From the IMG/VR virus record IMGVR_UViG_3300024520_000039: a stretch of DNA of 12,636 bases. The stretch is one strand, 5' to 3'. Position numbers and translations under genes: made by a program. Below are positions 1 to 12,636 of this stretch, piece after piece; the stretch's first letter is position 1, and every line of letters starts with the position of its first letter. The notes beneath the pieces were generated by a model. The model was not told the origin of the DNA. It worked only from the letters and a program-made list of their open reading frames with translations, and made no database searches. The stretch comes from a virus.

Positions 1-127
1 AATTAGGATCACCAACTAATGCACCTACAGATTTAACTCTTGGATCAAACCAGCCAATAGCAGTAGCCACACAAGTTGGAGAAGATATACAAATTTCTGA
101 TAAGATACAATTAGTAGAATTTACTTG
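1..127. repeat. Terminal overlap, copy 1. Identical to 12510-12636 and marks circular closure (or a terminal redundancy) of a 12,509-bp replicon.
   Basis: Base-by-base comparison: nt 1-127 (aattaggatcaccaactaatgc...gtagaatttacttg) equal nt 12510-12636. Confidence 0.95.
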
Positions 128-1889: not shown

Positions 1890-2110
1890 TGAAATATAAA
1901 ATACATGATGTAGTACCATCAAAAGATCCTAGAAAATTAATGATAACTGTCATTAAGTATAGTGACACTACAGAAGAAGAGTTCACATTCGACGTGGATG
2001 GGACAACAACCAAAGAACAAGTGTTACTAGAGATTGATAACATTATGAAAGCAACAATACTAGATTATATGGATTTTAAGGTAGAACGTAACAAACCGAA
2101 AGATATATAA
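1889..2110 (+). CDS. Hypothetical small protein (73 aa, MKYKIHDVV...). The track alternative start at 1841 would overlap the fibre gene by 49 nt.
   Basis: The ATG at 1889 overlaps the fibre stop (TAATG), the junction type used throughout this genome. The frame is open to TAA 2108-2110. Confidence 0.5.
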   Translation: MKYKIHDVVPSKDPRKLMITVIKYSDTTEEEFTFDVDGTTTKEQVLLEIDNIMKATILDYMDFKVERNKPKDI

Positions 2111-2111
2111 A
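2097..2111 (+). promoter_or_regulatory. Archaeal-type BRE/TATA promoter candidate (CGAAAGA-TATATAAA) for a leaderless RHH-gene mRNA.
   Basis: The 8-nt TATA box at 2104-2111 lies exactly 21 nt upstream of ATG 2133. There is no Shine-Dalgarno sequence in between. The geometry matches the sites at 10134-10148 and 4123-4137(-). Confidence 0.5.
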
Positions 2112-2132
2112 GAGTGATTGTGTGATATCACT

Positions 2133-2270
2133 ATGAAAGAACTAAGAATAATGTTTAGGGATAAGGATTTCAAAAGAATCAAGAGAATAAAACTAAGGAC
2201 AGGATCCACATGGAACAAAGCCGTAGTCATAGCTTTTGAATTACTAGACAGGGAGTTAAACAATGGTTGA
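2133..2270 (+). CDS. Ribbon-helix-helix (CopG/Arc-like) DNA-binding protein, 45 aa. It is below the ORF-track size cutoff.
   Basis: Manual translation gives MKELRIMFRDKDFKRIKRIKLRTGSTWNKAVVIAFELLDRELNNG. This has a short N-terminal beta-strand followed by two helices, as in RHH proteins. The gene is preceded by TATA-N21-ATG and overlaps the next gene (ATGGTTGA). Confidence 0.5.
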   Translation: MKELRIMFRDKDFKRIKRIKLRTGSTWNKAVVIAFELLDRELNNG

Positions 2271-2451
2271 AAAGGAAACAATAGCAAGATATGAAACTGG
2301 TTATATTAAACTAATGAAGATGTCTAAAGGGTATAATTGGGAGATCAAATACTTTGAAGATATGAATATGCCTACATTTCAAGTAATAATGAAGAACTTA
2401 GAAGAGATAGATTCAAAGATGCAGGAAAAATGGGGGGATATTATCGTATAA
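2263..2451 (+). CDS. Hypothetical protein, 62 aa.
   Basis: Track ORF. Its start overlaps the stop of the RHH ORF by 8 nt, suggesting translational coupling. No motif recognised. Confidence 0.45.
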   Translation: MVEKETIARYETGYIKLMKMSKGYNWEIKYFEDMNMPTFQVIMKNLEEIDSKMQEKWGDIIV

Positions 2452-2540
2452 TATTCATAGGGGGGTTTTATCACCAAATACTTGCTTGATTTCCTCATAA
2501 AAATCTGGCATTCTCTTCCCCCCTTTGATTCATAATTAAA

Positions 2541-2666
2541 ATGGAAATAACTTGTACAAAATGCAATACCATTTTTATGGTAGAATGGGATTCCAACGGG
2601 ATAAGAAAAGATAAGGAGGAGATTCAATGTCCTATTTGTGATTTTGACATTATCATAATAAATTAA
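2541..2666 (+). CDS. Zinc-ribbon mini-protein, 41 aa (CxxC-N21-CxxC). It is below the ORF-track cutoff.
   Basis: Manual translation gives MEITCTKCNTIFMVEWDSNGIRKDKEEIQCPICDFDIIIIN. Stop TAA 2664-2666 lies 1 nt before the next ATG. Confidence 0.45.
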   Translation: MEITCTKCNTIFMVEWDSNGIRKDKEEIQCPICDFDIIIIN

Positions 2667-2667
2667 A

Positions 2668-2919
2668 ATGGAAACAAAAATAGGAATAATAACTTTAAGT
2701 GATAAGGAGCATTGTTTATCTTGTGGGAAAACTAACTGTCCCTCTTGTGGATTTGATGGATTCGAAATAAAAGATGTCAAAGAATTTATTAAATTGTTAA
2801 AGGAAGAGATGAACGTATTTGTGTGGGATGTAGCTAATGAAGAAGGTGGAAGTAATTTACACTATAATGAGTTAATTGATGAAATAATAGATAAACTAGC
2901 AGGAGATAAATTAATATAA
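2668..2919 (+). CDS. Zinc-knuckle protein, 83 aa (CLSCGKTNCPSCG).
   Basis: Track ORF with a CxxC-x4-CxxC motif. Its first 26 nt are 25/26 identical to the first 26 nt of the next gene. The junction with that gene is TAATG. Confidence 0.6.
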   Translation: METKIGIITLSDKEHCLSCGKTNCPSCGFDGFEIKDVKEFIKLLKEEMNVFVWDVANEEGGSNLHYNELIDEIIDKLAGDKLI

Positions 2920-3326
2920 TGGAAACAATAATAGGAATAATAACAGATAAGCAGCATAAGAGCGGTAATGCTAAGGCAACTGGTAAGCCTTATGAGATGT
3001 GGACATTCCAAGTTAATGGGGCTAAGTTTAGTACTTTTGATGCAGATGTAGGGCGTTTGTATGCTATGGGGGATAACGTTGAAGTTACTCTTGAACAAGA
3101 CGGCAAGTATAAGAAGTTACTAAATATGAAAGTATCTACATCTAAACCAGACAGTAATATGAGTAATAAACCAGAGTTTCATTTAACAGAAGAAGCAATT
3201 AGAAGTAATGCCTTAACTAGTGCTATAGCTATATGTAAGAAGGAAGAGTTATTATTTGATTATGTTATTAGATTTGAGCAATATATCAGGGAGGGCATTA
3301 AAGATGAAGCAGAAGAAGAAAGGTAG
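2919..3326 (+). CDS. OB-fold, SSB-like protein, 135 aa.
   Basis: The N-terminal ~70 aa have an alternating beta-strand pattern (IGIITDK...WTFQVNG.KFSTFD...GDNVEVTLEQDGKYKKLLNMKV). This is followed by a linker, a helical region and an acidic C-terminal tail (KDEAEEER), as in many single-stranded DNA-binding proteins. The call is by pattern only. Confidence 0.45.
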   Translation: METIIGIITDKQHKSGNAKATGKPYEMWTFQVNGAKFSTFDADVGRLYAMGDNVEVTLEQDGKYKKLLNMKVSTSKPDSNMSNKPEFHLTEEAIRSNALTSAIAICKKEELLFDYVIRFEQYIREGIKDEAEEER

Positions 3327-3405
3327 TGCCGCTGTTGTATTTATTTGGTTAGTTTTCTTTTGGCCTGCAGCGATATGGTATTATCTTGAGAGGAGGTGGG
3401 ATTAA
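3304..3405 (+). CDS. Possible 33-aa single-pass membrane micro-protein (MKQKKKGSAAVVFIWLVFFWPAAIWYYLERRWD).
   Basis: Manual ORF with a Lys-rich N-terminus followed by a hydrophobic helix. Its stop overlaps the next ATG (TAATG at 3403-3407). It overlaps the 3' end of 2919-3326 by 23 nt. Confidence 0.3.
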   Translation: MKQKKKGSAAVVFIWLVFFWPAAIWYYLERRWD

Positions 3406-3608
3406 TGGTAAAAGAAGATCTGGGGATAAAGATTGGTAGTAAAGAGGAATCCTTTTGGCAAGATGTAGTGGATTCAGAGTGTATAGAGATAGAGGGACTA
3501 GAAAAGATGATGAAGCTACATTGTGCTGTTAGGTTAATGGCACAGGATAAGGTAATTCATGAAGAAGCAAAACGAAGTAGCGATACAACTAGCGATAAGA
3601 GCTCTTGA
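3405..3608 (+). CDS. Hypothetical protein (67 aa from ATG 3405; the track uses a GTG at 3396).
   Basis: GAGAGGAGGTG (3388-3398) lies upstream of ATG 3405 and resembles a Shine-Dalgarno sequence. The frame is open to TGA 3606-3608. Confidence 0.45.
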   Translation: MVKEDLGIKIGSKEESFWQDVVDSECIEIEGLEKMMKLHCAVRLMAQDKVIHEEAKRSSDTTSDKSS

Positions 3609-3753
3609 GGATGAAGTATTAAGGTTAAATGAGTTAAAGCTAAAAGGTAAGTTTAACCTGCTCCAATCTGAACACGCTCTAAAAAGGCTTACGGGGGCTA
3701 TACTGAATATATTTATTAAGGATCCTGATACTTTGGAACAGCATCCCGAATAG
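3559..3753 (+). CDS. Hypothetical helical protein, 64 aa.
   Basis: Track ORF with a heptad-like helical sequence (AIQLAIRALEDEVLRLNELKLKG). It overlaps the previous ORF by 50 nt in the +1 frame and overlaps the convergent minus-strand ORF by 38 nt. Confidence 0.35.
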   Translation: MKKQNEVAIQLAIRALEDEVLRLNELKLKGKFNLLQSEHALKRLTGAILNIFIKDPDTLEQHPE

Positions 3754-3889
3754 CTGCTTTACCTGCTGGTGATTTCCAAAAGGATTTAGCCTCTTTCATA
3801 AGTTTGTCATAATTCTCTTTACCCATACTTTGCCTTAAATCCTCTTTACGTGATTCAAGAATTCTCTCTCTTATTGGTCCGTAGCCCAT
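3716..3889 (-). CDS. Hypothetical protein, 57 aa (MGYGPIRERILESRKEDLRQSMGKENYDKLMKEAKSFWKSPAGKAAIRDAVPKYQDP). It is below the ORF-track cutoff.
   Basis: Manual translation of the minus strand. A strong GGGAGGG sits 6 nt upstream of the ATG (plus-strand CAT 3887-3889). The start overlaps the end of the upstream minus-strand gene by 19 nt. Confidence 0.45.
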   Translation of the reverse strand: MGYGPIRERILESRKEDLRQSMGKENYDKLMKEAKSFWKSPAGKAAIRDAVPKYQDP

Positions 3890-4101
3890 AGCAATCCCTC
3901 CCTATACTCAATTAGCTCTGCAGTAACTAGATCCTTAATATACTCTCTAATCTTAATTGTTCTAACTCCCCACTCTATTGATTGTAACGCTGTTAGTTTA
4001 TTCTCATCAACACCAACACCTTTTGACGTCGCTAATCTTATTGAGTTAAGAATGATGTTTACCTTTTCTCTTCTGTTTGCTGCCTGAAACTCTCCCTTCA
4101 T
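3871..4101 (-). CDS. Small winged-helix (wHTH) DNA-binding regulator, 76 aa.
   Basis: Track ORF. The pattern LTALQSIEWGVRTIKIREYIKDLVTAELIEYREGLLWA resembles a helix-turn-helix followed by a beta-hairpin wing. It is divergent from the terminase operon and has TATA-N21-ATG with no SD. Confidence 0.55.
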   Translation of the reverse strand: MKGEFQAANRREKVNIILNSIRLATSKGVGVDENKLTALQSIEWGVRTIKIREYIKDLVTAELIEYREGLLWATDQ

Positions 4102-4122
4102 ACATATCTGTTTACTTACTCA

Positions 4123-4137
4123 TATATAAAGGTTTCT
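4123..4137 (-). promoter_or_regulatory. Archaeal-type BRE/TATA promoter candidate (minus strand AGAAACC-TTTATATA) for a leaderless wHTH mRNA.
   Basis: TTTATATA (minus strand, 4130 down to 4123) is separated by exactly 21 nt (4122-4102) from the ATG at 4101. No SD is present. Confidence 0.5.
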
Positions 4138-4167
4138 AAGCCAAACCACCAGCTACGAGATTCTATT

Positions 4168-4180
4168 AAAAAGGCTGTAT
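4168..4180 (+). repeat. 13-nt direct repeat AAAAAGGCTGTAT, copy 1. It runs into TATATAAT (4178-4185), a TATA-box or -10-like element.
   Basis: Exact 13-mer repeated at 4662-4674, 494 nt downstream. Confidence 0.85.
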
Positions 4181-4661
4181 ATAATGCTCTACTAACTAAG
4201 ATTTATCTTTCTCTTGATTATATACTTGGATACAATTTAGTATTCCCACCAGAGGTGGGGACCTAGCTTATATAAGTATAAACAACTTTGGCCGTTTGGA
4301 GACAGCGTCGACAATCTAGGCCACCTGAACCTAGTCCTCTGATGTAAACATCTTTTGAGTATAGTATGGCCTAATAATAACCGATTGGTTATTTAGTGGA
4401 TTTAGGGGTTAATATAGGTTGTATGTGCATTGTGGGGTAATAACATTGTTTCGATGATAAACCGGCACTATTATATAGATCGCTCACTATAGCAAAGCTA
4501 TACGTTCGCTGACTATTTAATGTGCGAACGGACCTATCTCGAAACGGGCGTACAGGGGCTCTAAAGGCCAAATTCGGGGTTTTTCCCGCCTAAAAACCCC
4601 TCCAAGTATGGGGATATACTAGTTATTCGGCTAACCGAACAACTCAAAAGACCGACGTTCA

Positions 4662-4674
4662 AAAAAGGCTGTAT
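4662..4674 (+). repeat. 13-nt direct repeat AAAAAGGCTGTAT, copy 2.
   Basis: Exact match to 4168-4180. It is followed 2 nt later by GTAGCTGG (4677-4684), the reverse complement of CCAGCTAC at 4149-4156. Confidence 0.85.
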
Positions 4675-4708
4675 TTGTAGCTGGGCAGAAGACTGGAGAA
4701 AATTATTA

Positions 4709-4720
4709 TTTTTATTTTTT
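4709..4720 (+). terminator. Oligo-T tract (TTTTTATTTTTT). It is a possible archaeal-style intrinsic termination signal after the structured region.
   Basis: T5 (4709-4713) and T6 (4715-4720) runs lie immediately downstream of the GC-enriched region. No canonical bacterial stem-plus-U-tract terminator is seen. Confidence 0.3.
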
Positions 4721-4753
4721 AAAAAAGATTAAAAAGTCTAATATCTTAATAAT

Positions 4754-4781
4754 ATGGGGGGGTTATCTCTTTCCCTCCCAT
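4754..4781 (+). promoter_or_regulatory. G7-run hairpin in the terminase 5' leader.
   Basis: ATGGGGGGG (4754-4762) pairs with CCCTCCCAT (4773-4781), giving 9 bp including one G-T (G-U) wobble that works only on the + strand. The loop is 10 nt. The stem ends 9 nt before ATG 4791, and there is no SD. Confidence 0.4.
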
Positions 4782-4790
4782 TAAGAGAAA

Positions 4791-6035
4791 ATGGTTAAAC
4801 TAGATCAATGGCAACAAGATGTACTAGACACGAAGGGTAATATATGTCTAGTTAGCGGAAGACAAGTAGGAAAGAGTTTCATAATCTCCATTAAAGCAGC
4901 AATAGCAGCATTAAGTAAACCAAGACAGACTATAATGATTGTAGCAGCTACTGAAAGACAAGCATATCTACTATTCGAGAAGACACTTGCTTTTATAGAA
5001 CAAAATGACAGCAAAGCGATTAAGAAGGGGAAGTTTAGACCAACAAAGACAAGACTTAACTTAAGAAACGGAAGTACTATACATTGTTTACCAGTTGGAC
5101 TATCAGGTTATGGGATTAGAGGTTACACAGTTAATCAACTTTACGTTGATGAAGCAGCTTTTGTTAATGATGACGTATTTACTGCTATACTACCTATGCT
5201 CAGTACAACCAAAGGAGACCTTATACTACTGAGTACTCCACACGGAAGGAAGGGATTCCTTTACGAAGCAAGTAATAGAACTGACTTTAAACAGTTTAGA
5301 ATCAGTAGTGAAGAATGTGAAAGACATGATATAGAATTCTTAAACACACAAAAGGATATGATGACTAAAAAGGAGTACGCACAAGAGTATTTGGGACACT
5401 TTATAGATGACTTAGATCAGTTCTTCCCAGATAAGCTTATTAAAAGTGTTATGAAGAGGCAAAGACAACCTTACAACCCAGAATTTCACTACTATATGGG
5501 AGTAGATATAGCTAGAATGGGAAGTGACGAATCCACGTTTGAAGTTGTTTACAAGAAGAAGGATAGAATATACCAAGTAGACAATCACATAACTAAGAAG
5601 ACGCTAACCACTAACACAACAAGATTAATTAAAGTGTTTAAAGAGAAGTTTAACCTAAAGAAGATATATATAGATAGTAGGGGAGTTGGAGCTGGAGTCC
5701 TTGATCAATGTTTGGAGGATAATGACCTTAAGCGTAATATAGTTCCAATAGATAATGCAGCTAAAGACTTAACATATGACTCAAGTAGGCCAAAAAAACG
5801 TAAGTTGAACAAGGAAGAACTATACACTAACTTATTACGGTTAATGGAACAAGGTAAGATAGACTTACTAGATGATTCAGAGATATTCCAATCTCTAAAA
5901 AGCGTTCAATATGAATATACTAATGATGGGGATATAAGGATCTATGGAAAATACACTCATATAGCAGAAGGGCTGATTAGAGCGGCTTGGTGTGTTAAAG
6001 ACAAAAGCTTAAATATATGGATTGACTATATTTAG
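4791..6035 (+). CDS. terL: Terminase large subunit (ATPase plus nuclease), 414 aa.
   Basis: Walker A VSGRQVGKS, Walker B LYVDEAAF and a coupling-type LLSTPHG motif. The C-terminal RNaseH-like nuclease carries acidic motifs MGVDIARMGSDES and IYIDSRGVGAG. Confidence 0.9.
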   Translation: MVKLDQWQQDVLDTKGNICLVSGRQVGKSFIISIKAAIAALSKPRQTIMIVAATERQAYLLFEKTLAFIEQNDSKAIKKGKFRPTKTRLNLRNGSTIHCLPVGLSGYGIRGYTVNQLYVDEAAFVNDDVFTAILPMLSTTKGDLILLSTPHGRKGFLYEASNRTDFKQFRISSEECERHDIEFLNTQKDMMTKKEYAQEYLGHFIDDLDQFFPDKLIKSVMKRQRQPYNPEFHYYMGVDIARMGSDESTFEVVYKKKDRIYQVDNHITKKTLTTNTTRLIKVFKEKFNLKKIYIDSRGVGAGVLDQCLEDNDLKRNIVPIDNAAKDLTYDSSRPKKRKLNKEELYTNLLRLMEQGKIDLLDDSEIFQSLKSVQYEYTNDGDIRIYGKYTHIAEGLIRAAWCVKDKSLNIWIDYI

Positions 6036-6072
6036 CAAGAAAATAGGTAAAAAACACTAAAAAACAACTAAA

Positions 6073-6426
6073 ATGGCAGAAACTTTATGTGATTCGGGGG
6101 CAGTTAAGCTAAAAGCAGGGGCAAACGTGGCTACTTTAACAGGATCACAATATACACAATTAATAAACCAAGCTGAGGCGGATATAATGGCTTCAACCCG
6201 TATAGACTGGGTAAATCTATACAGTAGTCTGGACGCAGAAAACAAACTTATACTAGAGGCAGCCTGTAGTGATAAAGCAGGGATATATGCAATAAGCTAT
6301 GATATGTCAGGATACACCAGTCGAGCAGAAGCAATAACCATGTTAAATGTATTATGGGCAAGTTTTACTGATGCTTTGAGAGTATTAAAAGAAGATAATT
6401 CAAAAACTTATCTTGGAGGTAGCTGA
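6073..6426 (+). CDS. Possible head-tail connector/adaptor (gp6-like helical protein), 117 aa.
   Basis: Small helical protein within the head morphogenesis block. The segment QYTQLINQAEADIMASTR resembles the conserved helix of head-tail connector families. Evidence is weak and by eye only. Confidence 0.35.
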   Translation: MAETLCDSGAVKLKAGANVATLTGSQYTQLINQAEADIMASTRIDWVNLYSSLDAENKLILEAACSDKAGIYAISYDMSGYTSRAEAITMLNVLWASFTDALRVLKEDNSKTYLGGS

Positions 6427-7067
6427 TGGGAATATTACCAACAACAATCCCCCAACAAGCAGAAAGCCCTTTGATTACTTTCTCTTTTACTGATGTTGCA
6501 GAAGGAACTGGTATTCAAACCTTCTTCTTAGCTAATACAAAAGAAGATACAACTACTAGTTATTTACTAACAGGTAATGAGATATATAGTAATGATCAAA
6601 TTGAAACAGTATCTTTAGCAATAGATACATCAAGTTTTACTAAATTTGGAGATTTTGATTTTGACACTTCAGTATTAAACCTACCAAGAAACATAAGAGG
6701 TACTTTATCATCTAATTTATTCTGGAGTATTCAAAAAGCAACTGGATTTGTTTGCCAGGGATACATTATACTAAAGTTAAGGAAATGGGATGGAACTACT
6801 GAAACTGAAGTTACTTCTGTTCAATCTGAAACTGTAACTTCAACTCAAGCAGGAGTGGAACAAATTAGTGCAGTTCAAGTTTTAGTTAGTGATACACATT
6901 TTAAAAAGGGAGATACTATCAGATTAACTGTGGAAGTCTGGGCTAAAAATACAGATCCATCAAATCAAGGAACAATTAAATTTGGAAATGACCCTCAAAA
7001 TAGAATTGATGATATTTCAGAAGGAAGTAAATCGACGGTGTATATGCCGTTTAGGATAGACTCATAA
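6426..7067 (+). CDS. Virion-associated beta-sandwich protein of unknown role, 213 aa.
   Basis: GGAGG lies 8 nt upstream, with a TGATG junction to the previous gene and a TAATG junction to the portal gene. It is T/S-rich with beta-strand periodicity and a KKGDTIRLTVEVWA motif like the other two jelly-roll-like modules. Confidence 0.45.
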   Translation: MGILPTTIPQQAESPLITFSFTDVAEGTGIQTFFLANTKEDTTTSYLLTGNEIYSNDQIETVSLAIDTSSFTKFGDFDFDTSVLNLPRNIRGTLSSNLFWSIQKATGFVCQGYIILKLRKWDGTTETEVTSVQSETVTSTQAGVEQISAVQVLVSDTHFKKGDTIRLTVEVWAKNTDPSNQGTIKFGNDPQNRIDDISEGSKSTVYMPFRIDS

Positions 7068-8158
7068 TGGGAGAATTTGACTTAAACAAAACAACAGTAA
7101 CAGACCTAAGTGGAACTGTGGACGACTTCAAAGTAAACACACAAACCTTAGACTCTCCAGGAGAACAACAAGATGAAACAACTTATACTTTTGATAAAGC
7201 AGCAGAACAATTAGGTTACTACAAGTCTATACCTGAATTAAAAAAGGCAATAGATAGCCTAGCTATTTGGAGTGTTGCACAAGGATTTAAATCAGACGCA
7301 AGAACAAAATCAACTCTAGACTCTTTAACTGGATGGGGAGAAGATAGTTTTACTAGTATAGTTAGAAACCTAATAACTCAAAAGAAGATATTCGGAGATG
7401 CTTTCGCAGAAATAATAAGGGGAGATAATAATTCTATAATTAATATTAAACCACTATATACTGGAGATATGAAAGTAGTTGTTGATGGTAAGGGGATAAT
7501 AAAAAGATATGAACAGCTAAGTAGTAATAAAAAAAGCAAACCAAAAGTATTTGCACCAAATGAAATACTACATTTAGCAAACAATAGAATAGGTAATGAG
7601 ATTCATGGCGTAAGTGTTGTTGATGCTGTTAAGTGGGTTATAGATTCAAGAGCAGAAGCAATGAACGATTGGAGAAGACTCTCCCATAGATCAACAATTA
7701 GACTAATGTATATTGATGCAGATAATACAACCAAACTTAATTCAATAAAGACTGAGTATGCAAGTGCTATTGACAAAGGAGAACTAATGCTTATACCAGC
7801 TAAGAAAGGAGAGGCTGAGTTCCAAGATTTAGATCTACCGCCAATACAAAACCATCTTCAATGGATCCAATACTTAGAGAACTATTTCTACCAGGCGGTA
7901 GGAGTACCACGAGTTATTGCAACCTCTGAAAACTTTACCGAAGCTGCCTCTAAGATTGGATTCCTAACTTTTGAACCTATATACACAAGTGAACAAGTAG
8001 AGTTAGAAAGTGACCTTTGGTTACAAGCAGCAATAAAAGTTACATTTACTAGACCTCCTAGTCTAAGTGGGGTAGCACAAGACAATGAAGAAAAGAACAC
8101 AGGACAAACTGGATTTCAACAAAATGAAAGCCAAGTCGGTGTAGGGAGGACGGAATAA
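7067..8158 (+). CDS. Portal protein, 363 aa.
   Basis: Size and position within the terminase/head gene block. Central segments typical of portals are present (FGDAFAEIIR...ILHLANNRIGNEIHGVSVVDAV...). The C-terminus is disordered and Q/N/E-rich. Confidence 0.75.
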   Translation: MGEFDLNKTTVTDLSGTVDDFKVNTQTLDSPGEQQDETTYTFDKAAEQLGYYKSIPELKKAIDSLAIWSVAQGFKSDARTKSTLDSLTGWGEDSFTSIVRNLITQKKIFGDAFAEIIRGDNNSIINIKPLYTGDMKVVVDGKGIIKRYEQLSSNKKSKPKVFAPNEILHLANNRIGNEIHGVSVVDAVKWVIDSRAEAMNDWRRLSHRSTIRLMYIDADNTTKLNSIKTEYASAIDKGELMLIPAKKGEAEFQDLDLPPIQNHLQWIQYLENYFYQAVGVPRVIATSENFTEAASKIGFLTFEPIYTSEQVELESDLWLQAAIKVTFTRPPSLSGVAQDNEEKNTGQTGFQQNESQVGVGRTE

Positions 8159-8343
8159 TGACAAAGAAGAAACAAACCCATAAACCCTTAATTGAAACTA
8201 TAATTAATACATCTGCCTTAGCCTTAACAGCGTTTGGAGTTCAACAAATAACTATGAGTAATTGGGAAGGATACGGGTCTTTACTACTAGGTGTTATGTT
8301 GGAGTTTGCTAAATACTGGGGTAGAAAGGAGGAACTATGGTAA
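8158..8343 (+). CDS. Small membrane protein with two predicted TM helices, 61 aa. A holin-like role is possible but unsupported.
   Basis: GGGAGG SD and a TAATG junction. Hydrophobic segments IINTSALALTAFGVQQI and GYGSLLLGVMLEFAKYW. Confidence 0.4.
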   Translation: MTKKKQTHKPLIETIINTSALALTAFGVQQITMSNWEGYGSLLLGVMLEFAKYWGRKEELW

Positions 8344-9386
8344 CTAAGAAGAAGAAGAAGCAAATTTTTAATCAAACTCCAGCTACTCCGTTTGACTTAG
8401 CCAGAGGTAATAAAGAAACTCAAGATTCAACACCTAATAAAGGAACAGGATTCACTACTCAACCTGATCCTGGAGGAAAAGCAATATCCTTAAGTGATCC
8501 TGAAAAAGGAGGACAAACAACAGGTTTAGTATTACCAGATGGAAGGACATTACTTGGACTTAGTAAAGCAGATGTAGCAAAATTAACTCAAAGGTTTGAT
8601 GATGATTTAGGTGAGGGTAAAGGAGTTATAAGTGGAGTGGCACAAGGCGAAGCACTAGCACAAAGAAAAGCAGAAGGGTTACCAACTACAGATGAAGAAG
8701 CAGCAAGACTAGGAGAAGAACAAGGAGTTTTCAAAGATGTAACACAACCTCAATTAGAAGCACAATCTATTTTTACAGCAAAAGGAATTAGAGAAGCAGA
8801 AGCAGCAGCACAAGCGACTAACCCTTTAAACGGATTAAGAAAACAACTAAAGGGAGTTATACCAGAAGGCGAAGATACGCCACTTAGAATATTATTTGAA
8901 GGACAAAGAAAGATGATAGACTTAATTTTTGATGGGGCAGGTAGGAGAATAGCTTTAGTAAATGCAGCAAAGGAAATACCTGGATCAGTTCCTTTCGTTG
9001 GAGGGGCAGTTCAAACACTTACTCGTGACCCCCAAAAAGATGTTAATGAAATAAAAGGGAGTTTTGAAGCAAGAAACCAATTAGTAGCCAATGTTGCTGT
9101 AGATGTCTTACAGGAAGATATGTTAGCAGCAGATGGTTTTAGGGCATTAAATGAACATGAGAAAAGAGTAAACGAATATCTAGAAGAAATAAGAACGCAA
9201 GTAATCTTAAGCCCTTCCTTAAGAACTTCTGAACTAGAAGACTTAGAAGTGGATGCCTTAGAATTATTAGAGGAAATACAAGGGGCAAGAGGGGACATAT
9301 TTGAAGTAAGTGTTGGGACAAACCCAGACCCAGAAAGGATAGCTATGAAGATTGAGAGATATAAGAAACTTTTAAAGAAAGTGTAA
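8337..9386 (+). CDS. Scaffolding-like or internal head protein, 349 aa.
   Basis: AAGGAGG SD. The N-terminus is Lys-rich and disordered, followed by long E/A/K/Q-rich helical regions. The gene lies between the portal and capsid genes. No protease catalytic motif recognised. Confidence 0.5.
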   Translation: MVTKKKKKQIFNQTPATPFDLARGNKETQDSTPNKGTGFTTQPDPGGKAISLSDPEKGGQTTGLVLPDGRTLLGLSKADVAKLTQRFDDDLGEGKGVISGVAQGEALAQRKAEGLPTTDEEAARLGEEQGVFKDVTQPQLEAQSIFTAKGIREAEAAAQATNPLNGLRKQLKGVIPEGEDTPLRILFEGQRKMIDLIFDGAGRRIALVNAAKEIPGSVPFVGGAVQTLTRDPQKDVNEIKGSFEARNQLVANVAVDVLQEDMLAADGFRALNEHEKRVNEYLEEIRTQVILSPSLRTSELEDLEVDALELLEEIQGARGDIFEVSVGTNPDPERIAMKIERYKKLLKKV

Positions 9387-9396
9387 GGAGGTTAAA

Positions 9397-9648
9397 ATGA
9401 ACGAAAAAGAAACCAAAGAGATAAAAGATAATGAAGAGAAAGAAGAACACCCACTTGTCCAAACAGCACAGGAAGCGGCAACTCGTCTTGAGGCGGCTAA
9501 CAAAAAGGCTGAGGAAATTCTTAAAGCTAATCTTGAACTAGAGGCTAGAGGTAGACTTGGAGGAAAAGCAGATATTACAGTTCCTAAGAAGGATGAAGAA
9601 GTCAGCGCTGAGGATTATGCAAAACAAGTTCTAGGAGGTAAGTTATAA
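9397..9648 (+). CDS. Small charged coiled-coil protein (scaffold-like), 83 aa.
   Basis: AGGAGG SD with 6-nt spacing. E/K-rich helical sequence (AATRLEAANKKAEEILKANLELEARG). Confidence 0.5.
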   Translation: MNEKETKEIKDNEEKEEHPLVQTAQEAATRLEAANKKAEEILKANLELEARGRLGGKADITVPKKDEEVSAEDYAKQVLGGKL

Positions 9649-10067
9649 TGCACTTATACGTAATGGCTAAGGGGATAAAGCCCCATCTTGAAACTTGGCA
9701 GAATGAACTATTAGCCCAAAAGTTACCACTCATGAGGGATGGAAAACCAGTAATAGAAGAAGGAAATAGACAAATGTTCGTACAATTAGCAGTAAGACCA
9801 GTACAACTATTTGAGATAGGATTCCCAAAAGAACATCTTGATTATGTTATGAATGTCGTTGGTACTGGAGATTATATACTAGATCGTTATCCTATTCTAA
9901 ACTATAGTGCTAAGGCTCTGCGAAAGAGTTTTGGACTAAAGGATGTACCTATACCAAAGGCACCTAATATGTTAATGCAGCCAGAACCAACTCAAAAATC
10001 AGTTGCAATAGTCCCAATAGGTATAAAGGAGGACATGTTTAGCAAGGATGGAGTTGAGCAACTTTGA
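9648..10067 (+). CDS. Hypothetical head-module protein, 139 aa.
   Basis: AGGAGG SD and a TAATG junction. No motif recognised. Confidence 0.5.
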   Translation: MHLYVMAKGIKPHLETWQNELLAQKLPLMRDGKPVIEEGNRQMFVQLAVRPVQLFEIGFPKEHLDYVMNVVGTGDYILDRYPILNYSAKALRKSFGLKDVPIPKAPNMLMQPEPTQKSVAIVPIGIKEDMFSKDGVEQL

Positions 10068-10149
10068 CTTATGGTTCTTTAGAATAGGTGCTTTAGGCAT
10101 GATTCTAATAAAATCTTATCAAGTCTTTATTAAGGAAAGATTTAAATAA
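10048..10149 (+). CDS. Possible 33-aa membrane micro-protein (MELSNFDLWFFRIGALGMILIKSYQVFIKERFK).
   Basis: Manual ORF overlapping the end of 9648-10067 by 20 nt. It has a hydrophobic core followed by a basic tail and fills most of an otherwise non-coding 102-nt gap. Its 3' end overlaps the TATA box at 10141-10148. Confidence 0.25.
   Translation: MELSNFDLWFFRIGALGMILIKSYQVFIKERFK
10134..10148 (+). promoter_or_regulatory. Archaeal-type BRE/TATA promoter candidate (GGAAAGA-TTTAAATA) for a leaderless decoration/capsid mRNA.
   Basis: TTTAAATA (10141-10148) is followed by exactly 21 nt and then ATG 10170. No SD is present. The GAAAGA element is shared with the site at 2097-2111. Confidence 0.5.
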
Positions 10150-10169
10150 TAGTACTGTGTAGTCCTAAC

Positions 10170-10595
10170 ATGGCAAATGAGGCGATTTGGAGAGATAACT
10201 TGGGAGAAACTCCTATAGATTTTACTGTTGCAGACGGTACAGGGATTGAAAAAGGAGCTTTATGCAAATTAACAGATCCTAGAACAGCAGCACTTTCTGA
10301 CACACTAGGAGAACCTATTGCAGGTATTGCAGCTAGAGAAAAGATAGCAAATAATACAATAACTAGACTTGCATTTCACAGAAAGGGTATTTTTGATATG
10401 GTAGCTAGTGGTGCAATTACAGTTGGAGAACCTGTAACAACAGCAGCAGACGCAAACTACCCAAACACAGTTAGAGTTGCTTTAGAGAGTGCTATTTCAG
10501 GAGCAGCAGTTATAGGACACTCACTTGAAACAGCATCTGATGGTGAAGTAGTTCAAATTTTATTTAACATAGGAAGTGGATCTCCGCAGAAATAA
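10170..10595 (+). CDS. Head decoration / capsid cement protein (DUF2190-like), 141 aa.
   Basis: Pattern ...GTGIEKGALCKLTD...IAGIAAREK...GIFDMVASGAITVGEPV...AVIGHSLETASDGEVVQILFN, typical of DUF2190-type decoration proteins. The gene lies immediately upstream of the major capsid gene. Confidence 0.6.
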   Translation: MANEAIWRDNLGETPIDFTVADGTGIEKGALCKLTDPRTAALSDTLGEPIAGIAAREKIANNTITRLAFHRKGIFDMVASGAITVGEPVTTAADANYPNTVRVALESAISGAAVIGHSLETASDGEVVQILFNIGSGSPQK

Positions 10596-10596
10596 A

Positions 10597-10659
10597 ATGA
10601 ATGACGAAGAAGTAACACCTACAGAAGAAGAAGAAAATAAAGAGGAGGAAGAAGAATAA
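10597..10659 (+). CDS. Possible 20-aa acidic micro-ORF (MNDEEVTPTEEEENKEEEEE). It may equally be only a purine-rich spacer carrying the capsid gene's SD.
   Basis: Manual ORF whose stop overlaps the capsid ATG (TAATG). It contains GAGGAGG 11 nt upstream of ATG 10659. Confidence 0.15.
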   Translation: MNDEEVTPTEEEENKEEEEE

Positions 10660-11525
10660 TGGCAGATACAGTAGAACAGGCAGACATAAGGGGATTAGAT
10701 ATAGATAAAGCTGTAAAAGGATTTGCTTTAACAGAATATATTTTTAAGAACTTAGTTTCACAAGGTACAACATCAGGAGATTCTATTAGATGGTACAAGG
10801 AAACAGCAGCAGACTTAACAGCAACAGCACCAAGTGTTATTGCTAACATCTCACCATTAAGTACATTCCCAACTCTTGAAGTATCTTGGACAAGAAATAC
10901 TAGTTATGTAAGAAAATATGCAGCTGAAGGATTCTTATCTATGGAAGATATGAAGTCAGCAGATATTGATGTATTAGCTAGAACTCTACTTAGATTAACT
11001 AGGGCAGTAGTAAAGCAAGTAGATACTAGAATTTATAACGTATTAACTGAATCTCAATCACCAAGTGATATTGGAACAGCAGCTGCTACAGGAACAGGAT
11101 GGGATGATACAACTAATGGAAACCCAGTATTAGATATTATGGCAGCAAAGCAAAACATAGCTGAGAATGATTATGACTTAGCATCTTGTATTGTAGCTAT
11201 GAACCCTAAGAACCATAAGGATTTACTTAACTATTTAATAACAGTAAAAGGATCTAGTATCCCAAGTTTCTCAAGTGAGAAGGTACAAACTGGTATAGTT
11301 ATGAACCTATTAGGTTGTCGAGTGGTAGTAAGTAATAACGTTGTAGCAGATTCAGTTTATGTAGGATTACCTGCTAAAGCTGCAACTTGGAAAACATTCA
11401 CAGGAACAACAGCAAGAGTTATTGAAGATCCTGGACTCGGAAGTAAGGTAAGAGTATGGGAAATTGGAGAAGCTATTTTAACAGATCCTAAGGCATGTTA
11501 TTTAATTACTGATACAGATACATAA
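10659..11525 (+). CDS. Major capsid protein, HK97 fold, 288 aa.
   Basis: Position after the scaffold and decoration genes. A spine-helix-like segment DVLARTLLRLTRAVVKQVDTRIYNVL is present. The region GWDD..NPVLDIMAAKQNI...AMNPKNHKDL and the C-terminal VWEIGEAILTDPKACYLI are typical of HK97-like capsid families. Confidence 0.8.
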   Translation: MADTVEQADIRGLDIDKAVKGFALTEYIFKNLVSQGTTSGDSIRWYKETAADLTATAPSVIANISPLSTFPTLEVSWTRNTSYVRKYAAEGFLSMEDMKSADIDVLARTLLRLTRAVVKQVDTRIYNVLTESQSPSDIGTAAATGTGWDDTTNGNPVLDIMAAKQNIAENDYDLASCIVAMNPKNHKDLLNYLITVKGSSIPSFSSEKVQTGIVMNLLGCRVVVSNNVVADSVYVGLPAKAATWKTFTGTTARVIEDPGLGSKVRVWEIGEAILTDPKACYLITDTDT

Positions 11526-11686
11526 TGACAAAAGAAAATTCTAAAAAGTTATACGATTTTTACTTAGAAAGTGGTAACATCAAAGCAGCTACTAACATGC
11601 TTAATAAGTACCCTGACTTTGCAACAAAGAAGAAAGTAGTAGTAGAAGAAGTTGTAGAAGAAAAAGAAAAAATTAAAAAGAAGTAA
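11525..11686 (+). CDS. Hypothetical 53-aa protein with a Lys/Glu-rich tail. It is below the ORF-track cutoff.
   Basis: Manual ORF MTKENSKKLYDFYLESGNIKAATNMLNKYPDFATKKKVVVEEVVEEKEKIKKK, joined to the capsid gene by a TAATG junction. Confidence 0.4.
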   Translation: MTKENSKKLYDFYLESGNIKAATNMLNKYPDFATKKKVVVEEVVEEKEKIKKK

Positions 11687-11700
11687 TACGTATAATTCTA

Positions 11701-11823
11701 ATGGTAGAAGTAGGAACAGGAACAATAGGTACTAGATTTATAGAAACTGATTATCCTAATAGTGGTGGTCTTGTCGCTGGTACAACTATTACCTGGGAAG
11801 ATAAAGATCTGGAGATTTCATAA
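11701..11823 (+). CDS. Hypothetical 40-aa protein (MVEVGTGTIGTRFIETDYPNSGGLVAGTTITWEDKDLEIS). It is below the ORF-track cutoff.
   Basis: Manual ORF joined to the next gene by a TAATG junction. An A/T-only octamer ATTAAAAA (11672-11679) again lies exactly 21 nt upstream of the ATG; this site is weaker than the other three. Confidence 0.35.
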   Translation: MVEVGTGTIGTRFIETDYPNSGGLVAGTTITWEDKDLEIS

Positions 11824-12359
11824 TGGTACCTGGATTAGCAGCTAACGCACATCCCACAAATTTTGTATTACCTAATCAAAGTGGTATGGAAAACAATTCT
11901 AGATTTCTAAATGAAATGCAAGTTTACGGAGAGATATGGGTTAAGGATAATACTACAGAAACAACTCTAAATAGTGCAGCAAAGGCACAAATATTAGTAT
12001 TTACTGATGATGGAGATGCAGAAGGGAGTAAGCCTGAATTTGAAGAGGGACATATAGAGATAAAAAAAGCAGGGAAATATATGGTTAATGTCGCTATGTC
12101 TATGAGCAATACAGCAGGACAAGGCCATGTCGTTAGTGTTGGATTATTTGTAAATAATGGAGAAGATCCATTTAATAATGTCCATGCAGGTAGAGGATTA
12201 ACAACAGCATCAACAGTTGGTAACGCTCATATGTCAGGGATATGTAACTTTGATGTTGGGGATACTGTGGAACTATGGGCTATTACTGATAGCGGCCAGG
12301 ATAGGAATGTATTATTTGAAGATGTAACATTAAGTATAACAAGGGTAGGTAAATTATAA
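11823..12359 (+). CDS. C1q/TNF-like (BclA-C-terminal-like) jelly-roll protein, 178 aa. Probably a fibre-tip or receptor-binding component.
   Basis: Strand pattern YGEIWV...HIEIKKAGKYMVNVAMSMS...VSVGLFVNNGED...MSGICNFDVGDTVELWAI...VTLSITRV matches the C1q/TNF jelly-roll signature. TAATG junctions lie on both sides, and the gene is directly upstream of the fibre ORF. Confidence 0.5.
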   Translation: MVPGLAANAHPTNFVLPNQSGMENNSRFLNEMQVYGEIWVKDNTTETTLNSAAKAQILVFTDDGDAEGSKPEFEEGHIEIKKAGKYMVNVAMSMSNTAGQGHVVSVGLFVNNGEDPFNNVHAGRGLTTASTVGNAHMSGICNFDVGDTVELWAITDSGQDRNVLFEDVTLSITRVGKL

Positions 12360-12636
12360 TGGGAGGACAAGGGAGTGGAAGAAAACCAGATGAGGCGAAG
12401 AGGTTTATAGAAACTCATGCTAATGTAGCAGCTGCAGGAAAAGAAGGTTTAGTTATCCCAAATTATTCTGGTATAAGAGATGATATAAATAAAGGTAGAG
12501 TTGGGAAAAAATTAGGATCACCAACTAATGCACCTACAGATTTAACTCTTGGATCAAACCAGCCAATAGCAGTAGCCACACAAGTTGGAGAAGATATACA
12601 AATTTCTGATAAGATACAATTAGTAGAATTTACTTG
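12359..12636 (+). CDS. Tail fibre / receptor-binding protein, 5' part of the wrap-around ORF that continues at nt 3-1889 (MGGQGSGRKPDEAKRFIETHANVAAAGKEG...).
   Basis: The ATG at 12359 overlaps the preceding stop (TAATG). An in-frame stop at 12350-12352 precludes an earlier start. The frame is open to the window end and is in phase with nt 3 onward via the 127-nt overlap. Confidence 0.75.
   Translation, partial: MGGQGSGRKPDEAKRFIETHANVAAAGKEGLVIPNYSGIRDDINKGRVGKKLGSPTNAPTDLTLGSNQPIAVATQVGEDIQISDKIQLVEFT
12510..12636. repeat. Terminal overlap, copy 2 (identical to 1-127).
   Basis: Base-by-base identity with the window start. Confidence 0.95.

Follow-up and report, generated by a model that had tools for sequence, protein, structure and literature searches.

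The question raised by this locus is what reads an A/T-rich octamer that recurs, at one fixed distance and with no intervening Shine-Dalgarno (SD) sequence, ahead of the first genes of several operons of a small tailed virus, and what the answer says about the host. The window, the whole 12,636-nt stretch of DNA that was analysed, carries a 127-nt terminal direct repeat (1..127 is identical to 12510-12636) and is a closed genome with a 12,509-bp unit. The sites are very probably archaeal-type core promoters, driving leaderless first genes through the TBP, TFB and RNA polymerase (RNAP) of an archaeal host.

Octamer sites and transcription units of the window

The sites were located by direct reading of the sequence and by regular expressions, and scored with a PWM built from relatives. 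P1 (2095..2135, plus strand) consists of a BRE-like ACCGAAAGA (2095-2103, with the purine box CGAAAGA at 2097-2103), the TATA box TATATAAA (2104-2111), a 21-nt spacer (2112-2132) and an ATG at 2133, and scores 12.2 bits. P2, on the minus strand (4099..4139; 10.1 bits), has a BRE-like TTAGAAACC (4139-4131, purine box AGAAACC at 4137-4131), the TATA box TTTATATA (4130-4123), a 21-nt spacer and its ATG at 4101-4099. P3 (10132..10172, plus strand; 15.2 bits) joins the BRE AAGGAAAGA (10132-10140, purine box GGAAAGA at 10134-10140) and the TATA box TTTAAATA (10141-10148) through a 21-nt spacer to the ATG at 10170. P4 (11663..11703, plus strand; 12.6 bits) does so with the A-rich BRE AAAGAAAAA (11663-11671) and the TATA box ATTAAAAA (11672-11679), again followed by 21 nt and an ATG, at 11701. 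A GGAG-type SD is absent from all four spacers. The original prediction of three SD-less octamer-N21-ATG sites (P1, P2 and P3) is borne out, each octamer lying exactly 21 nt before the ATG of a real gene; its dismissal of the fourth, at 11672, as weaker is not, since that site scores on a par with the others.

The octamer T[AT]TA[AT]A[AT]A occurs 11 times on the two strands, in 7 places that are independent of one another; 1000 dinucleotide shuffles of the window give 18.8 +/- 6.0. An ATG at N21 follows 3 of the 11, against 0.30 expected, with three or more in 0.4% of shuffles (P about 0.004), and each of the three ATGs opens a real gene. Upstream of the 27 listed gene starts the strict octamer stands at no spacing between 0 and 60 nt other than 21. 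At exactly N21, four of these starts score 10.1-15.2 bits and the remaining 23 all score below 4; the only other gene-proximal site with a PWM score of at least 10 is at 6008. The initial list of 27 included position 891, later recognised as an internal methionine of the tail-fibre ORF and rejected as a gene start.

At least four transcription units would begin at these sites: an early unit at 2133, a divergent regulatory unit at 4101 (minus strand), a capsid unit at 10170 and a tail unit at 11701, with a fifth BRE/TATA at the end of TerL. P1 would drive the early/regulatory operon (2133..3753, plus strand), in which a leaderless 45-aa gene is followed by genes of 62, 41, 83, 135, 33, 67 and 64 aa, most of them with an SD or an overlap; zinc-ribbon proteins are encoded by genes 2541 and 2668 (Zn_ribbon_4, 3.7e-5). 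The 73-aa gene upstream of P1 ends in a stop codon (2108-2110) that lies within the P1 TATA box, and the spacer holds a candidate operator (2114..2131) made of a perfect 10-bp palindrome, GTGATATCAC (2122-2131, -11 to -2), and a third half-site, GTGAT (2114-2118). The palindrome occurs once in the genome; lying over the P1 start point, it is a candidate repressor site, through which P1 may be autoregulated. P2 would drive a two-gene operon (3716..4101, minus strand) consisting of a leaderless 76-aa gene (4101-3871) and an overlapping 57-aa gene (3889-3716) with the SD GGGAGGG. A homologue search with the 76-aa protein found identical copies only, and the RHH and wHTH labels earlier given to the 45-aa and 76-aa proteins were looked for and not confirmed.

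The packaging and head-assembly genes (4791..10067, plus strand) comprise TerL (4791-6035), 117-aa and 213-aa genes, the portal (7067-8158, PF04860) and genes of 61, 349, 83 and 139 aa, their internal starts marked by an SD (GGAGG), an overlap or both. In the capsid operon (10170..11686, plus strand), assigned to P3, the leaderless first gene (10170-10595) encodes a decoration/cement protein, as had been proposed (PF09956, 2e-7); a 20-aa ORF, the MCP gene (10659-11525, SD GAGGAGGA; PF25209 at 1e-10, phrog_1650 at 3e-26) and a 53-aa gene with a TAATG overlap follow. The tail module (from 11701, plus strand; profile match phrog_24210, 2e-5), assigned to P4, holds genes of 40 and 178 aa, the 679-aa tail fibre, which runs from 12359 through the junction to 1889, and the 73-aa gene ending at 2110. 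That internal genes are SD-led or stop/start coupled also holds: GGAG or GGAGG lies 4-12 nt upstream of 11 of them (2263, 2919, 3304, 3405, 3889 on the minus strand, 6426, 8158, 8337, 9397, 9648 and 10659), and TAATG or ATGA overlaps couple many. Both an SD and an N21 promoter are missing at the starts of TerL (4791), 2541, 2668 and 6073, so that the model needs SD-less leaders for them.

Promoter grammar of the family and of mapped archaeal promoters

The octamer-to-ATG distance, tallied over 720 kb of related sequence in 84 loci (about 85 genomes and fragments), peaks sharply at 21 nt. The count there is 97 (background about 7) when the ATG opens an ORF of at least 40 aa and 124 (background about 25) when every ATG is taken; the peak has shoulders at 22 and 23 nt, and the PWM-based histogram places 113 sites at 21 nt. 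Unselected columns give the consensus A-[C/G]-AAA-NN-TTTAAATA, with T at -10, a pyrimidine at -1 and A at +1 (A is 0.84 at -38, 0.65 at -36, 0.91 at -34, 0.81 at -33 and 0.92 at -32; T at -10 is 0.75 and C/T at -1 is 0.87). The BRE is A-rich, A standing 3-5 nt upstream of the TATA box; between -15 and -4 the sequence is G-poor. A promoter-N20-23-ATG arrangement precedes the decoration-protein homologue in 30 relatives. The closest relative, L092, has a promoter at all four orthologous positions in intergenic DNA that cannot be aligned: TTTAAATA with N22 before a 74-aa gene as the positional counterpart of P2, TTTAAATA-N21 (18.7 bits) for P3, and an identical ATTAAAAA-N21-ATG (14.6 bits) for P4. 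The persistence of the rule across about 85 genomes and fragments makes archaea, rather than bacteria, the most likely hosts of this virus family.

The top PWM match of the window (18.0 bits) is P5 (5999..6037, plus strand; AGACAAAAG CTTAAATA, octamer 6008-6015), which lies within the 3' coding end of TerL and has a stronger BRE/TATA than P1-P4. Its counterpart stands N21 before the gene after TerL in 14 of the 19 relatives examined, and 56 family promoters precede homologues of gene 6073. In the window the next ATG (6073) is 57 nt away, a distance that implies either a 36-nt A-rich, unstructured, SD-less leader (predicted fold -0.2 kcal/mol) or decay of the promoter. Synonymous codons across the motif are fixed, with AAA for 38 of 38 lysines, TTA for 19 of 19 leucines and AAT for 19 of 19 asparagines (background 61%, 34% and 62%); judged from this codon choice, the C-terminal coding sequence of TerL is under selection to keep the P5 BRE/TATA. 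A candidate TerL promoter, P6 (ATTAAAAA, 4728-4735; 4719..4790 with its leader, plus strand; PWM 9.3), is not conserved in relatives; speculatively, transcription from it would start near 4757 and give a 34-nt SD-less leader with a G7/C7 hairpin at 4754-4781 (-15.1 kcal/mol, z -1.1).

Cellular archaeal core promoters whose starts were mapped, by dRNA-seq or primer extension, are built along similar lines. In Thermococcus onnurineus they combine an A-rich BRE with an 8-bp TATA box centred at about -27, and carry a PPE at -10 and a pyrimidine at -1, and ATG starts 94.9% of its leaderless mRNAs (PMC5316973); in Methanocaldococcus jannaschii the TATA box's 3' edge is 23 +/- 2 nt from the transcription start (TSS), and a BRE position 3 nt upstream of the box is conserved (PMC2699501). 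The window family has in common with both the 8-bp box (TTWTAW and TWTATATA there) and adjoining A-rich BRE, the conserved A 3 nt from the box, A/T at -10, pyrimidine at -1 and purine at +1, and the window shares with cellular archaeal promoters leaderless mRNAs beginning with ATG and internal genes with GGDGRD-type SDs. It differs from them in its consensus, TTTAAATA and not TWTATATA, and from M. jannaschii in a box-to-start distance of 21 nt (with minor classes at 22-23). A spacing of 21 nt is at the lower limit of the range in M. jannaschii. In Sulfolobus spindle-shaped virus 1 (SSV1, NC_001338), mapped starts lie 27-30 nt from the start of box A, and transcripts T3, T4 and T9, with a TTTAAA/TTTATA box, no SD and further cistrons following in their operons, start 1 nt before the ATG; the window octamer begins 29 nt before the A of its ATG. 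SSV1 differs as a spindle-shaped crenarchaeal virus with unrelated genes, whose starts were mapped experimentally, whereas those here are predicted.

Together, the family N21 peak, the BRE, PPE and Inr columns, the likeness to SSV1 and the lack of bacterial signals support the archaeal BRE/TATA leaderless-promoter reading originally proposed. TFB would recognise the A-rich BRE, and host TBP would bind the adjoining 8-bp TATA box. With this spacing RNAP would start at the A of the ATG or 1 nt upstream of it, so that the first gene of each operon would yield a leaderless mRNA. This would be translated without an SD, and downstream cistrons by SD-led initiation or stop/start coupling. Having neither an RNAP of its own nor a recognisable transcription factor, the virus would depend on host TBP, TFB and RNAP, and its host would be an archaeon.

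Bacterial and non-promoter readings

The most durable alternative, a bacterial host (low-GC or CPR, for example) in which the octamer is either a -10-like box, leaving an SD-less leader of some 14 nt, or a -35/UP-like element rich in A and T, is unlikely. It draws on bins of relatives labelled Balneolia and Saccharibacteria, on a short tail-fibre motif common to Rhizobium and Puniceispirillum phage fibres, and on a weak portal match to Clostridium phages. Leaderless genes of Actinobacteria and Deinococcus likewise combine a fixed element-to-ATG distance with the lack of an SD; however, in bacteria the element is TANNNT, some 12 nt upstream of the start codon, and the archaeal TA signal lies about 30 nt upstream (PMC3160421). 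The family sites have A at -11 at 0.14 and T at -7 at 0.35, and in the window the 8-bp TATA box, preceded by a BRE, occupies -29 to -22, which is the archaeal position. A TTGACA-like partner 17 nt upstream is absent, the AAA-NN block adjoining the box instead; sigma-70 pairs are below expectation (31 vs 42.6), and a rigid octamer-to-ATG distance is unexplained if there is a leader. Intrinsic (hairpin) terminators are not enriched either (4 vs 6.2 expected). The N21 peak is absent from the AT-rich bacterial phages examined, Clostridium phage CDKM15 and Mycoplasma phage P1. The relatives, whole viral contigs within MAGs, fall into mutually discordant bins (some are labelled 'uncultured archaeon'). 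Binning is unreliable for free viral contigs; yet the MAG labels are no help to the archaeal-host reading.

It is very improbable that the octamers form a promoter class peculiar to the virus and recognised by a bacterial RNAP in modified form, in the manner of T4 late promoters, whose -10 consensus TATAAATA, used with a phage sigma, resembles the octamer. No sigma-like or RNAP-like gene was found among 20 proteins scanned with Pfam, to which PHROGs add none for 10 of them. With such a class transcription would begin about 6 nt past the box and leave a 15-nt leader; the class leaves the fixed 21-nt ATG distance, the BRE, T at -10 and the pyrimidine(-1)/A(+1) start unexplained, and sits poorly with one motif driving early, regulatory and late operons alike. 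That the octamer is no promoter at all, being a 5' UTR translation enhancer or an AT-rich intergenic by-product, is the least credible reading: the genome is 36% GC and A/U-rich leaders can enhance translation, but octamers are not over-represented, the single-nucleotide peak, BRE and Inr are features of a DNA grammar, synonymous codons keep the motif inside TerL, and equally AT-rich bacterial phages lack the peak.

Related viruses and genome size

The archaeal-promoter reading agrees with the placement of TerL and MCP, for both of which the nearest isolate is the haloarchaeal HGTV-1 (Halogranum tailed virus 1, Halomagnusviridae): TerL matches at 32% over 97% (5e-44; next 1e-25) and MCP at 27% over 173 aa (1e-7). 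Gene order is alike (TerL, small gene, portal ... small gene, MCP), but HGTV-1 is a 144-kb myovirus of a halophilic host and, in the 15 kb examined, has about 50% GC. Its portal and decoration proteins have no detectable similarity to those of the window, and its promoters do not match the family PWM; portal, decoration and tail proteins of the window have no informative isolate homologues.

An element of this kind has very probably been reported before. Vik et al. 2017 (PeerJ, PMC5474096) described ETNP contig 2_300_C3851131, a circular, 12,262-bp "putative archaeal virus" of marine viromes. It has about 20 genes, including a terminase that resembles those of archaeal viruses and a divergent portal (PF04860); they doubted its circularisation, and their archaeal case came from the best hits of few genes only. 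By description (12,262 against 12,509 bp, circular, PF04860 portal) it is probably a member of the same family. What is added here is the promoter grammar and the closure of many independent genomes.

The window has no gene for a recognisable replication protein. Mycoplasma phage P1 (11,660 bp), one of the smallest tailed phages, also has a genome of about 12 kb; it differs in its protein-primed DNA polymerase and terminal repeats, and has no octamer-N21-ATG signal though its GC content is 27%. The window is a member of a large, widespread family of very small tailed viruses with units of 11.0-12.5 kb, and the description of it as an unusually small archaeal head-tail virus stands because, besides its own closure, 15 relatives close likewise, at 11,017-12,516 bp.

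A TATA octamer at a fixed distance from the start codon

Re-read directly, the sequence returns every coordinate of the original prediction. On the plus strand, TATA boxes at 2104-2111 (promoter P1, TATATAAA), 10141-10148 (P3, TTTAAATA) and 11672-11679 (P4, ATTAAAAA) are each followed, after exactly 21 nt, by an ATG (at 2133, 10170 and 11701, respectively); on the minus strand, the box at 4130-4123 (P2, TTTATATA) stands at the same 21-nt distance from the ATG at 4101-4099. ATG is the start codon of all four promoter-led genes, the bases at -1 among the four starts are T, C, T and A, and the BRE elements directly 5' of the boxes read GAAAGA (P1), GAAAGA (P3), GAAACC (P2) and AGAAAAA (P4). The strict octamer, T[AT]TA[AT]A[AT]A, occurs 11 times on the two strands of the window, in 7 independent places, and 3 of these 11 have an ATG at exactly 21 nt (0.30 expected, P ~0.004, from shuffles); upstream of the listed gene starts it is found at no spacing except 21. 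Scored at the exact spacing with a position weight matrix (PWM) made from family sites, the four starts yield 10.1-15.2 bits, while the other 23 gene starts all score below 4.

It is the relatives, rather than the window alone, that supply the decisive evidence for reading these elements as promoters. Metagenomes hold more than 2000 homologues of the large terminase (TerL), many of them on contigs of 11-13.8 kb, and the family numbers 558 or more IMG/VR contigs; the comparison drew on 80 loci from IMG/VR together with several further ones. In 84 loci (720 kb), with TerL proteins 48-70% identical and intergenic DNA that cannot be aligned, the distance from octamer to ATG has one sharp peak, at 21 nt, with shoulders at 22 and 23. 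The peak stands at 124 against a background of ~25 for any ATG, and at 97 against ~7 for ATGs that open ORFs of at least 40 aa. The family consensus in a 96-site logo is likewise TTTAAATA, at -29 to -22, and the unselected columns of the same logo carry a good deal of further information: A at -38 (0.84) and -36 (0.65), C or G at -35, an AAA block at -34 to -32 (0.91, 0.81, 0.92) separated by two unspecified positions from the TATA box, T-rich positions at -20/-19, T at -10 (0.75), a pyrimidine at -1 (0.87), and then ATG-G. The frequency of G between -15 and -4 is 0.01-0.24. The genes behind these family promoters are the gene after TerL (56), decoration (30), portal (8), g11701 (6) and TerL itself (3), along with 76 small genes that are not conserved; loci of at least 10.5 kb have between 0 and 7 promoters (median 3). 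In the closest relative of the window, L092 (TerL 70% identical), each of the four orthologous sites retains a promoter, and the ATTAAAAA variant is among those retained.

The highest PWM score of the window, 18.0 bits, belongs to a site within the C-terminal codons of TerL (KDKSLNI), where ACAAAAG-CTTAAATA occupies 6001-6015 (predicted promoter P5, 6008). The synonymous choices that build its BRE and TATA box are fixed among 19 diverse TerL genes: K is AAA at 38/38 positions (61% elsewhere in the same genes), L is TTA at 19/19 (34%), N is AAT at 19/19 (62%) and D is GAC at 14/17 (36%). The ATG of the next gene lies exactly 21 nt past the motif in 14 of the 19. The window is an exception in that its ATG, at 6073, is 57 nt away, which implies either an A-rich, unstructured, SD-less leader of 36 nt or a decaying promoter. 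The gap between P5 and 6073 looks like a clade-specific insertion or promoter decay; the corresponding gap in L092 contains a 43-aa ORF.

Archaeal and bacterial readings of the motif

Promoters of this grammar, and leaderless first genes followed by internal genes with Shine-Dalgarno (SD) sites, are textbook archaeal biology. In Thermococcus onnurineus, an 8-bp TATA box is centred near -27 with an A-rich BRE just 5' of it, A/T at -10 and a pyrimidine at -1, and leaderless mRNAs start with ATG (PMC5316973); in Methanocaldococcus jannaschii, the most conserved BRE position is 3 nt from the box, whose 3' edge lies 23 +/- 2 nt from the transcription start (PMC2699501). In the window and its family, the TATA box is 8 bp long, A/T-rich and of the TTTAWATA type; the A-rich BRE adjoins it and has a conserved base 3 nt away, an A/T element stands near -10, and the initiator has a pyrimidine at -1 and a purine at +1. 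The ATG start, with no SD between it and the promoter, is what a leaderless mRNA would be expected to have.

SIRV2 served badly as a control here, since its peak, at 35 nt, reflects short leaders; the comparison therefore uses the mapped starts of the Sulfolobus spindle-shaped virus SSV1. In SSV1, box A begins 27-30 nt ahead of the transcription start, which for T3, T4 and T9 is located 1 nt before the ATG; the window is similar, with the octamer beginning 29 nt from the A of the ATG, its starts being predicted where those of SSV1 are mapped. With the ATG taken as the start point, the 21-nt spacing falls inside the SSV1 (19-22) and M. jannaschii (23 +/- 2) ranges. Zheng et al. give a rule that separates the two domains: in archaeal leaderless genes a TA-like signal precedes the start codon by ~30 bp, and in bacterial ones TANNNT precedes it by ~12 bp (PMC3160421).

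The notion that these are bacterial sigma-70 promoters, or bacterial leaderless genes, finds little in its favor. The logo is devoid of a bacterial -10 signal (A at -11, 0.14; T at -7, 0.35), pairs of sigma-70-like elements are no commoner in the window than in shuffles (31, against 42.6 +/- 7.2), with none placed at an operon start, and no peak at 21 is seen in two bacterial phages that are AT-rich and contain 203 and 49 octamers. Hairpin (intrinsic) terminators are not enriched in the window either (4, with 6.2 expected). Taken with the family peak at 21 nt and the BRE, -10 and -1 columns, the lack of sigma-70 enrichment sustains the archaeal reading of the original prediction: the geometry itself is confirmed, and its interpretation as archaeal BRE/TATA promoters of leaderless genes is held with high confidence.

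The companion claim, that internal genes are SD-led or translationally coupled, is also borne out: GGAG and GGAGG sites or TAATG and ATGA overlaps are found, and GGAGG sites peak 5-10 nt ahead of the other ATGs. Four starts, TerL (4791), 2541, 2668 and 6073, lack both an SD and a promoter at 21 nt, and a model of promoters and SD sites accounts for them incompletely.

The strict octamer is scarcer in the window (11) than in dinucleotide shuffles (18.8 +/- 6.0), a shortage that is not significant. Runs of five or more T number 12 on the plus strand, which is mainly coding, and 35 on the minus strand, a threefold difference. Scarcity of both would fit an avoidance of spurious TATA boxes and oligo-T terminators, an effect confounded by the A>T skew and not significant.

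Host, genome size and kinship

Bases 1-127 of the contig are an exact copy of 12510-12636, and because this end repeat is exact the contig closes into a unit of 12,509 bp. The genome is carried by samples ENA ERZ27250004, JGI 3300024517 and SRR7615941. TerL (4791-6035; PF03237, 2e-17; phrog_2, 1e-44), a portal (7067-8158; PF04860 at 7e-9, which is under the Pfam cut-off; phrog_12, 1e-12) and an HK97-type major capsid protein (MCP; 10659-11525; PF25209, 1e-10; phrog_1650, 3e-26) are recognized by sequence, and this combination of terminase, portal and predicted HK97-fold capsid protein places the window in the Caudoviricetes.

The best isolate match of TerL is to the haloarchaeal Halogranum tailed virus 1, HGTV-1 (32% identity, 5e-44, 170 bits); the next match is at 1e-25, and bacterial phages reach at most 115 bits. 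A tblastn search with the MCP against 50,697 phage records gives no match, and pairwise the protein aligns to the HGTV-1 MCP at 1e-7. At 27-32% identity, this closeness of the hallmark proteins to a known archaeal virus weakly suggests an archaeal host, and does so independently of the promoters. Searches with the portal, decoration and tail-fibre proteins against isolate phages are uninformative on the host, and an exact-protein look-up with the window TerL returns no record.

Metagenome-assembled genomes (MAGs) were a less reliable guide. Whole or partial family genomes sit in GTDB or public MAGs (L003, PXDL01000472.1; L004, CAYQQO010000032.1; and L005) whose bins are labelled Balneolia, Candidatus Saccharibacteria and "uncultured archaeon"; these labels conflict. 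The family genomes are probably viral contamination of the bins rather than evidence on the host, and the result flags such contamination in the Balneolia and Saccharibacteria MAGs. Bins of Nitrososphaeria and Wolframiiraptor contain TerL relatives at a greater distance (28%), and the placements in all these bins were treated as unreliable. One candidate provirus of 21,422 bp (IMGVR_UViG_3300028920_000300, L016/L093) was rejected: it carries two related but non-identical portal-to-capsid gene sets in tandem and is an assembly chimera or a concatemer of two family members.

Vik et al. (2017) very probably met the same virus group. They described a circular contig of 12,262 bp from the ETNP whose genes include an "archaeal virus-like terminase" and a portal of divergent sequence, and suspected an artefact of circularization because its size is below that of known tailed-virus isolates (PMC5474096). 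Closure at 11,017-12,516 bp in 15 independent relatives, in addition to the window itself, shows that the ~12-kb size is real, and the genome is as unusually small as originally proposed. Searches of the literature for ~12-kb archaeal tailed viruses with a formal description turned up the report by Vik et al. and no other. What is new here is evidence for an archaeal host that is cis-regulatory and family-wide.

Host domain is the hardest assignment to make for uncultivated viruses, and cis-regulatory grammar is independent of protein best hits and of MAG binning; the promoter-based evidence covers a large family of ~12-kb circular tailed-virus genomes. If it holds, the TATA-N21-ATG rule (exactly 21 nt between octamer and ATG) could be used to tell the host domain of uncultivated viruses from sequence alone, and to spot viral contigs mis-binned into bacterial MAGs. 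We lean, with some reserve, towards a wider proposal, that these genomes make up a lineage of family rank, globally distributed and undescribed, whose members (11.0-12.5 kb) are the smallest archaeal tailed viruses known, have no recognizable polymerase, replication initiator or transcription factor, and depend wholly on host TBP, TFB and RNA polymerase through 1-7 leaderless BRE/TATA promoters per genome. If the hosts are abundant mesophilic archaea of marine waters and sediments, the family would rank with the smallest known tailed dsDNA viruses and would offer a minimal model of the reliance of a head-tail virus on host transcription and replication.

Transcription units, gene content and non-coding DNA

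Host TBP would bind the octamer and TFB would read the AAA block, with RNA polymerase starting on the A of the ATG or 1 nt before it; the first cistron would then be translated as a leaderless mRNA, and later cistrons from GGAGG sites or by termination-reinitiation. The predicted P1 unit (from 2104) comprises small early genes at 2133-3753; convergent with it, the predicted P2 unit (from 4130, minus strand) comprises two small genes at 4101-3716. P5 (6008), and perhaps P6 (4728), would serve the packaging and head-assembly genes; P3 (10141) the capsid gene and that of the cement/decoration protein (10170-10595, assigned by Pfam/PHROGs); and P4 (11672) the tail genes, across the contig junction to 2110. 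One ORF of 679 aa encodes the tail fibre (phrog_24210, 2e-5), starting at 12359, crossing the junction and ending at 1889; the ATG at 891 is an internal methionine. In scans of 20 window proteins neither a sheath nor a tube nor a tape measure was detected, a result that points to a short tail; the same scans gave no match to a polymerase, a replication initiator, an integrase, an RNA polymerase or a sigma factor. When the window and 12 relatives were scanned for tRNAs and Rfam families, nothing was found.

A perfect palindrome, GTGATATCAC, unique in the window, occupies 2122-2131 (-11 to -2 of P1), with a third GTGAT half-site 8 nt upstream (2114-2118), making it a plausible candidate repressor operator for autoregulation by one of the window's small proteins. 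The first genes behind P1 and P2 had been labelled RHH and wHTH, assignments that found no confirmation: neither the 45-aa nor the 76-aa protein has a Pfam match, and their AlphaFold models (single-sequence and low-confidence, pLDDT 73 and 64, respectively) lack RHH topology. PDB sequence searches with the two are empty or spurious, and the 76-aa protein is an ORFan, with no homologues except identical copies. The early operon also contains a zinc-ribbon pair, 2541-2666 and 2668-2919, small CxxC...CxxC proteins (Zn_ribbon_4, 3.7e-5; a weak FYVE-like match); the SSV1 annotation likewise includes small zinc-ribbon proteins.

Between P2 and TerL lies a gene-free region of 689 nt (4102-4790) without nucleotide similarity to any of the ~85 relatives. 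On either strand its RNA is predicted to fold more stably than shuffled versions do (z -3.4 and -3.0), and the 13 nt at 4168, AAAAAGGCTGTAT, recur exactly and in direct orientation at 4662; the region is a candidate origin, pac site or non-coding RNA locus. Several relatives have an ORF-free stretch of 500-850 nt shortly upstream of TerL (by a qualitative scan subject to boundary artefact), and in L092 the pre-TerL region has strong BRE/TATA matches (2342, plus strand; 2301, minus strand) with no ORF downstream. Just 5' of the SD-less genes 2541 and TerL are similar G-run/C-run elements that can form hairpins: 2459-2525, GGGGGGTTTTATC...CTCTTCCCCCC (-22.7 kcal/mol, z -2.3), and 4754-4781, GGGGGGGTTATCTCTTTCCCTCCC (-15.1 kcal/mol, z -1.1). 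Such elements are not conserved upstream of TerL in the relatives, and since that upstream region is itself unconserved, the G7/C7 hairpin of the TerL leader is specific to the window genome and not significant. In the C-terminal half of the tail fibre, a 39-aa motif, LAVAHGGTAASNAGDARTNLGV (residues ~86-124 of that half), matches tail fibres of Rhizobium and Puniceispirillum phages at 74% identity.
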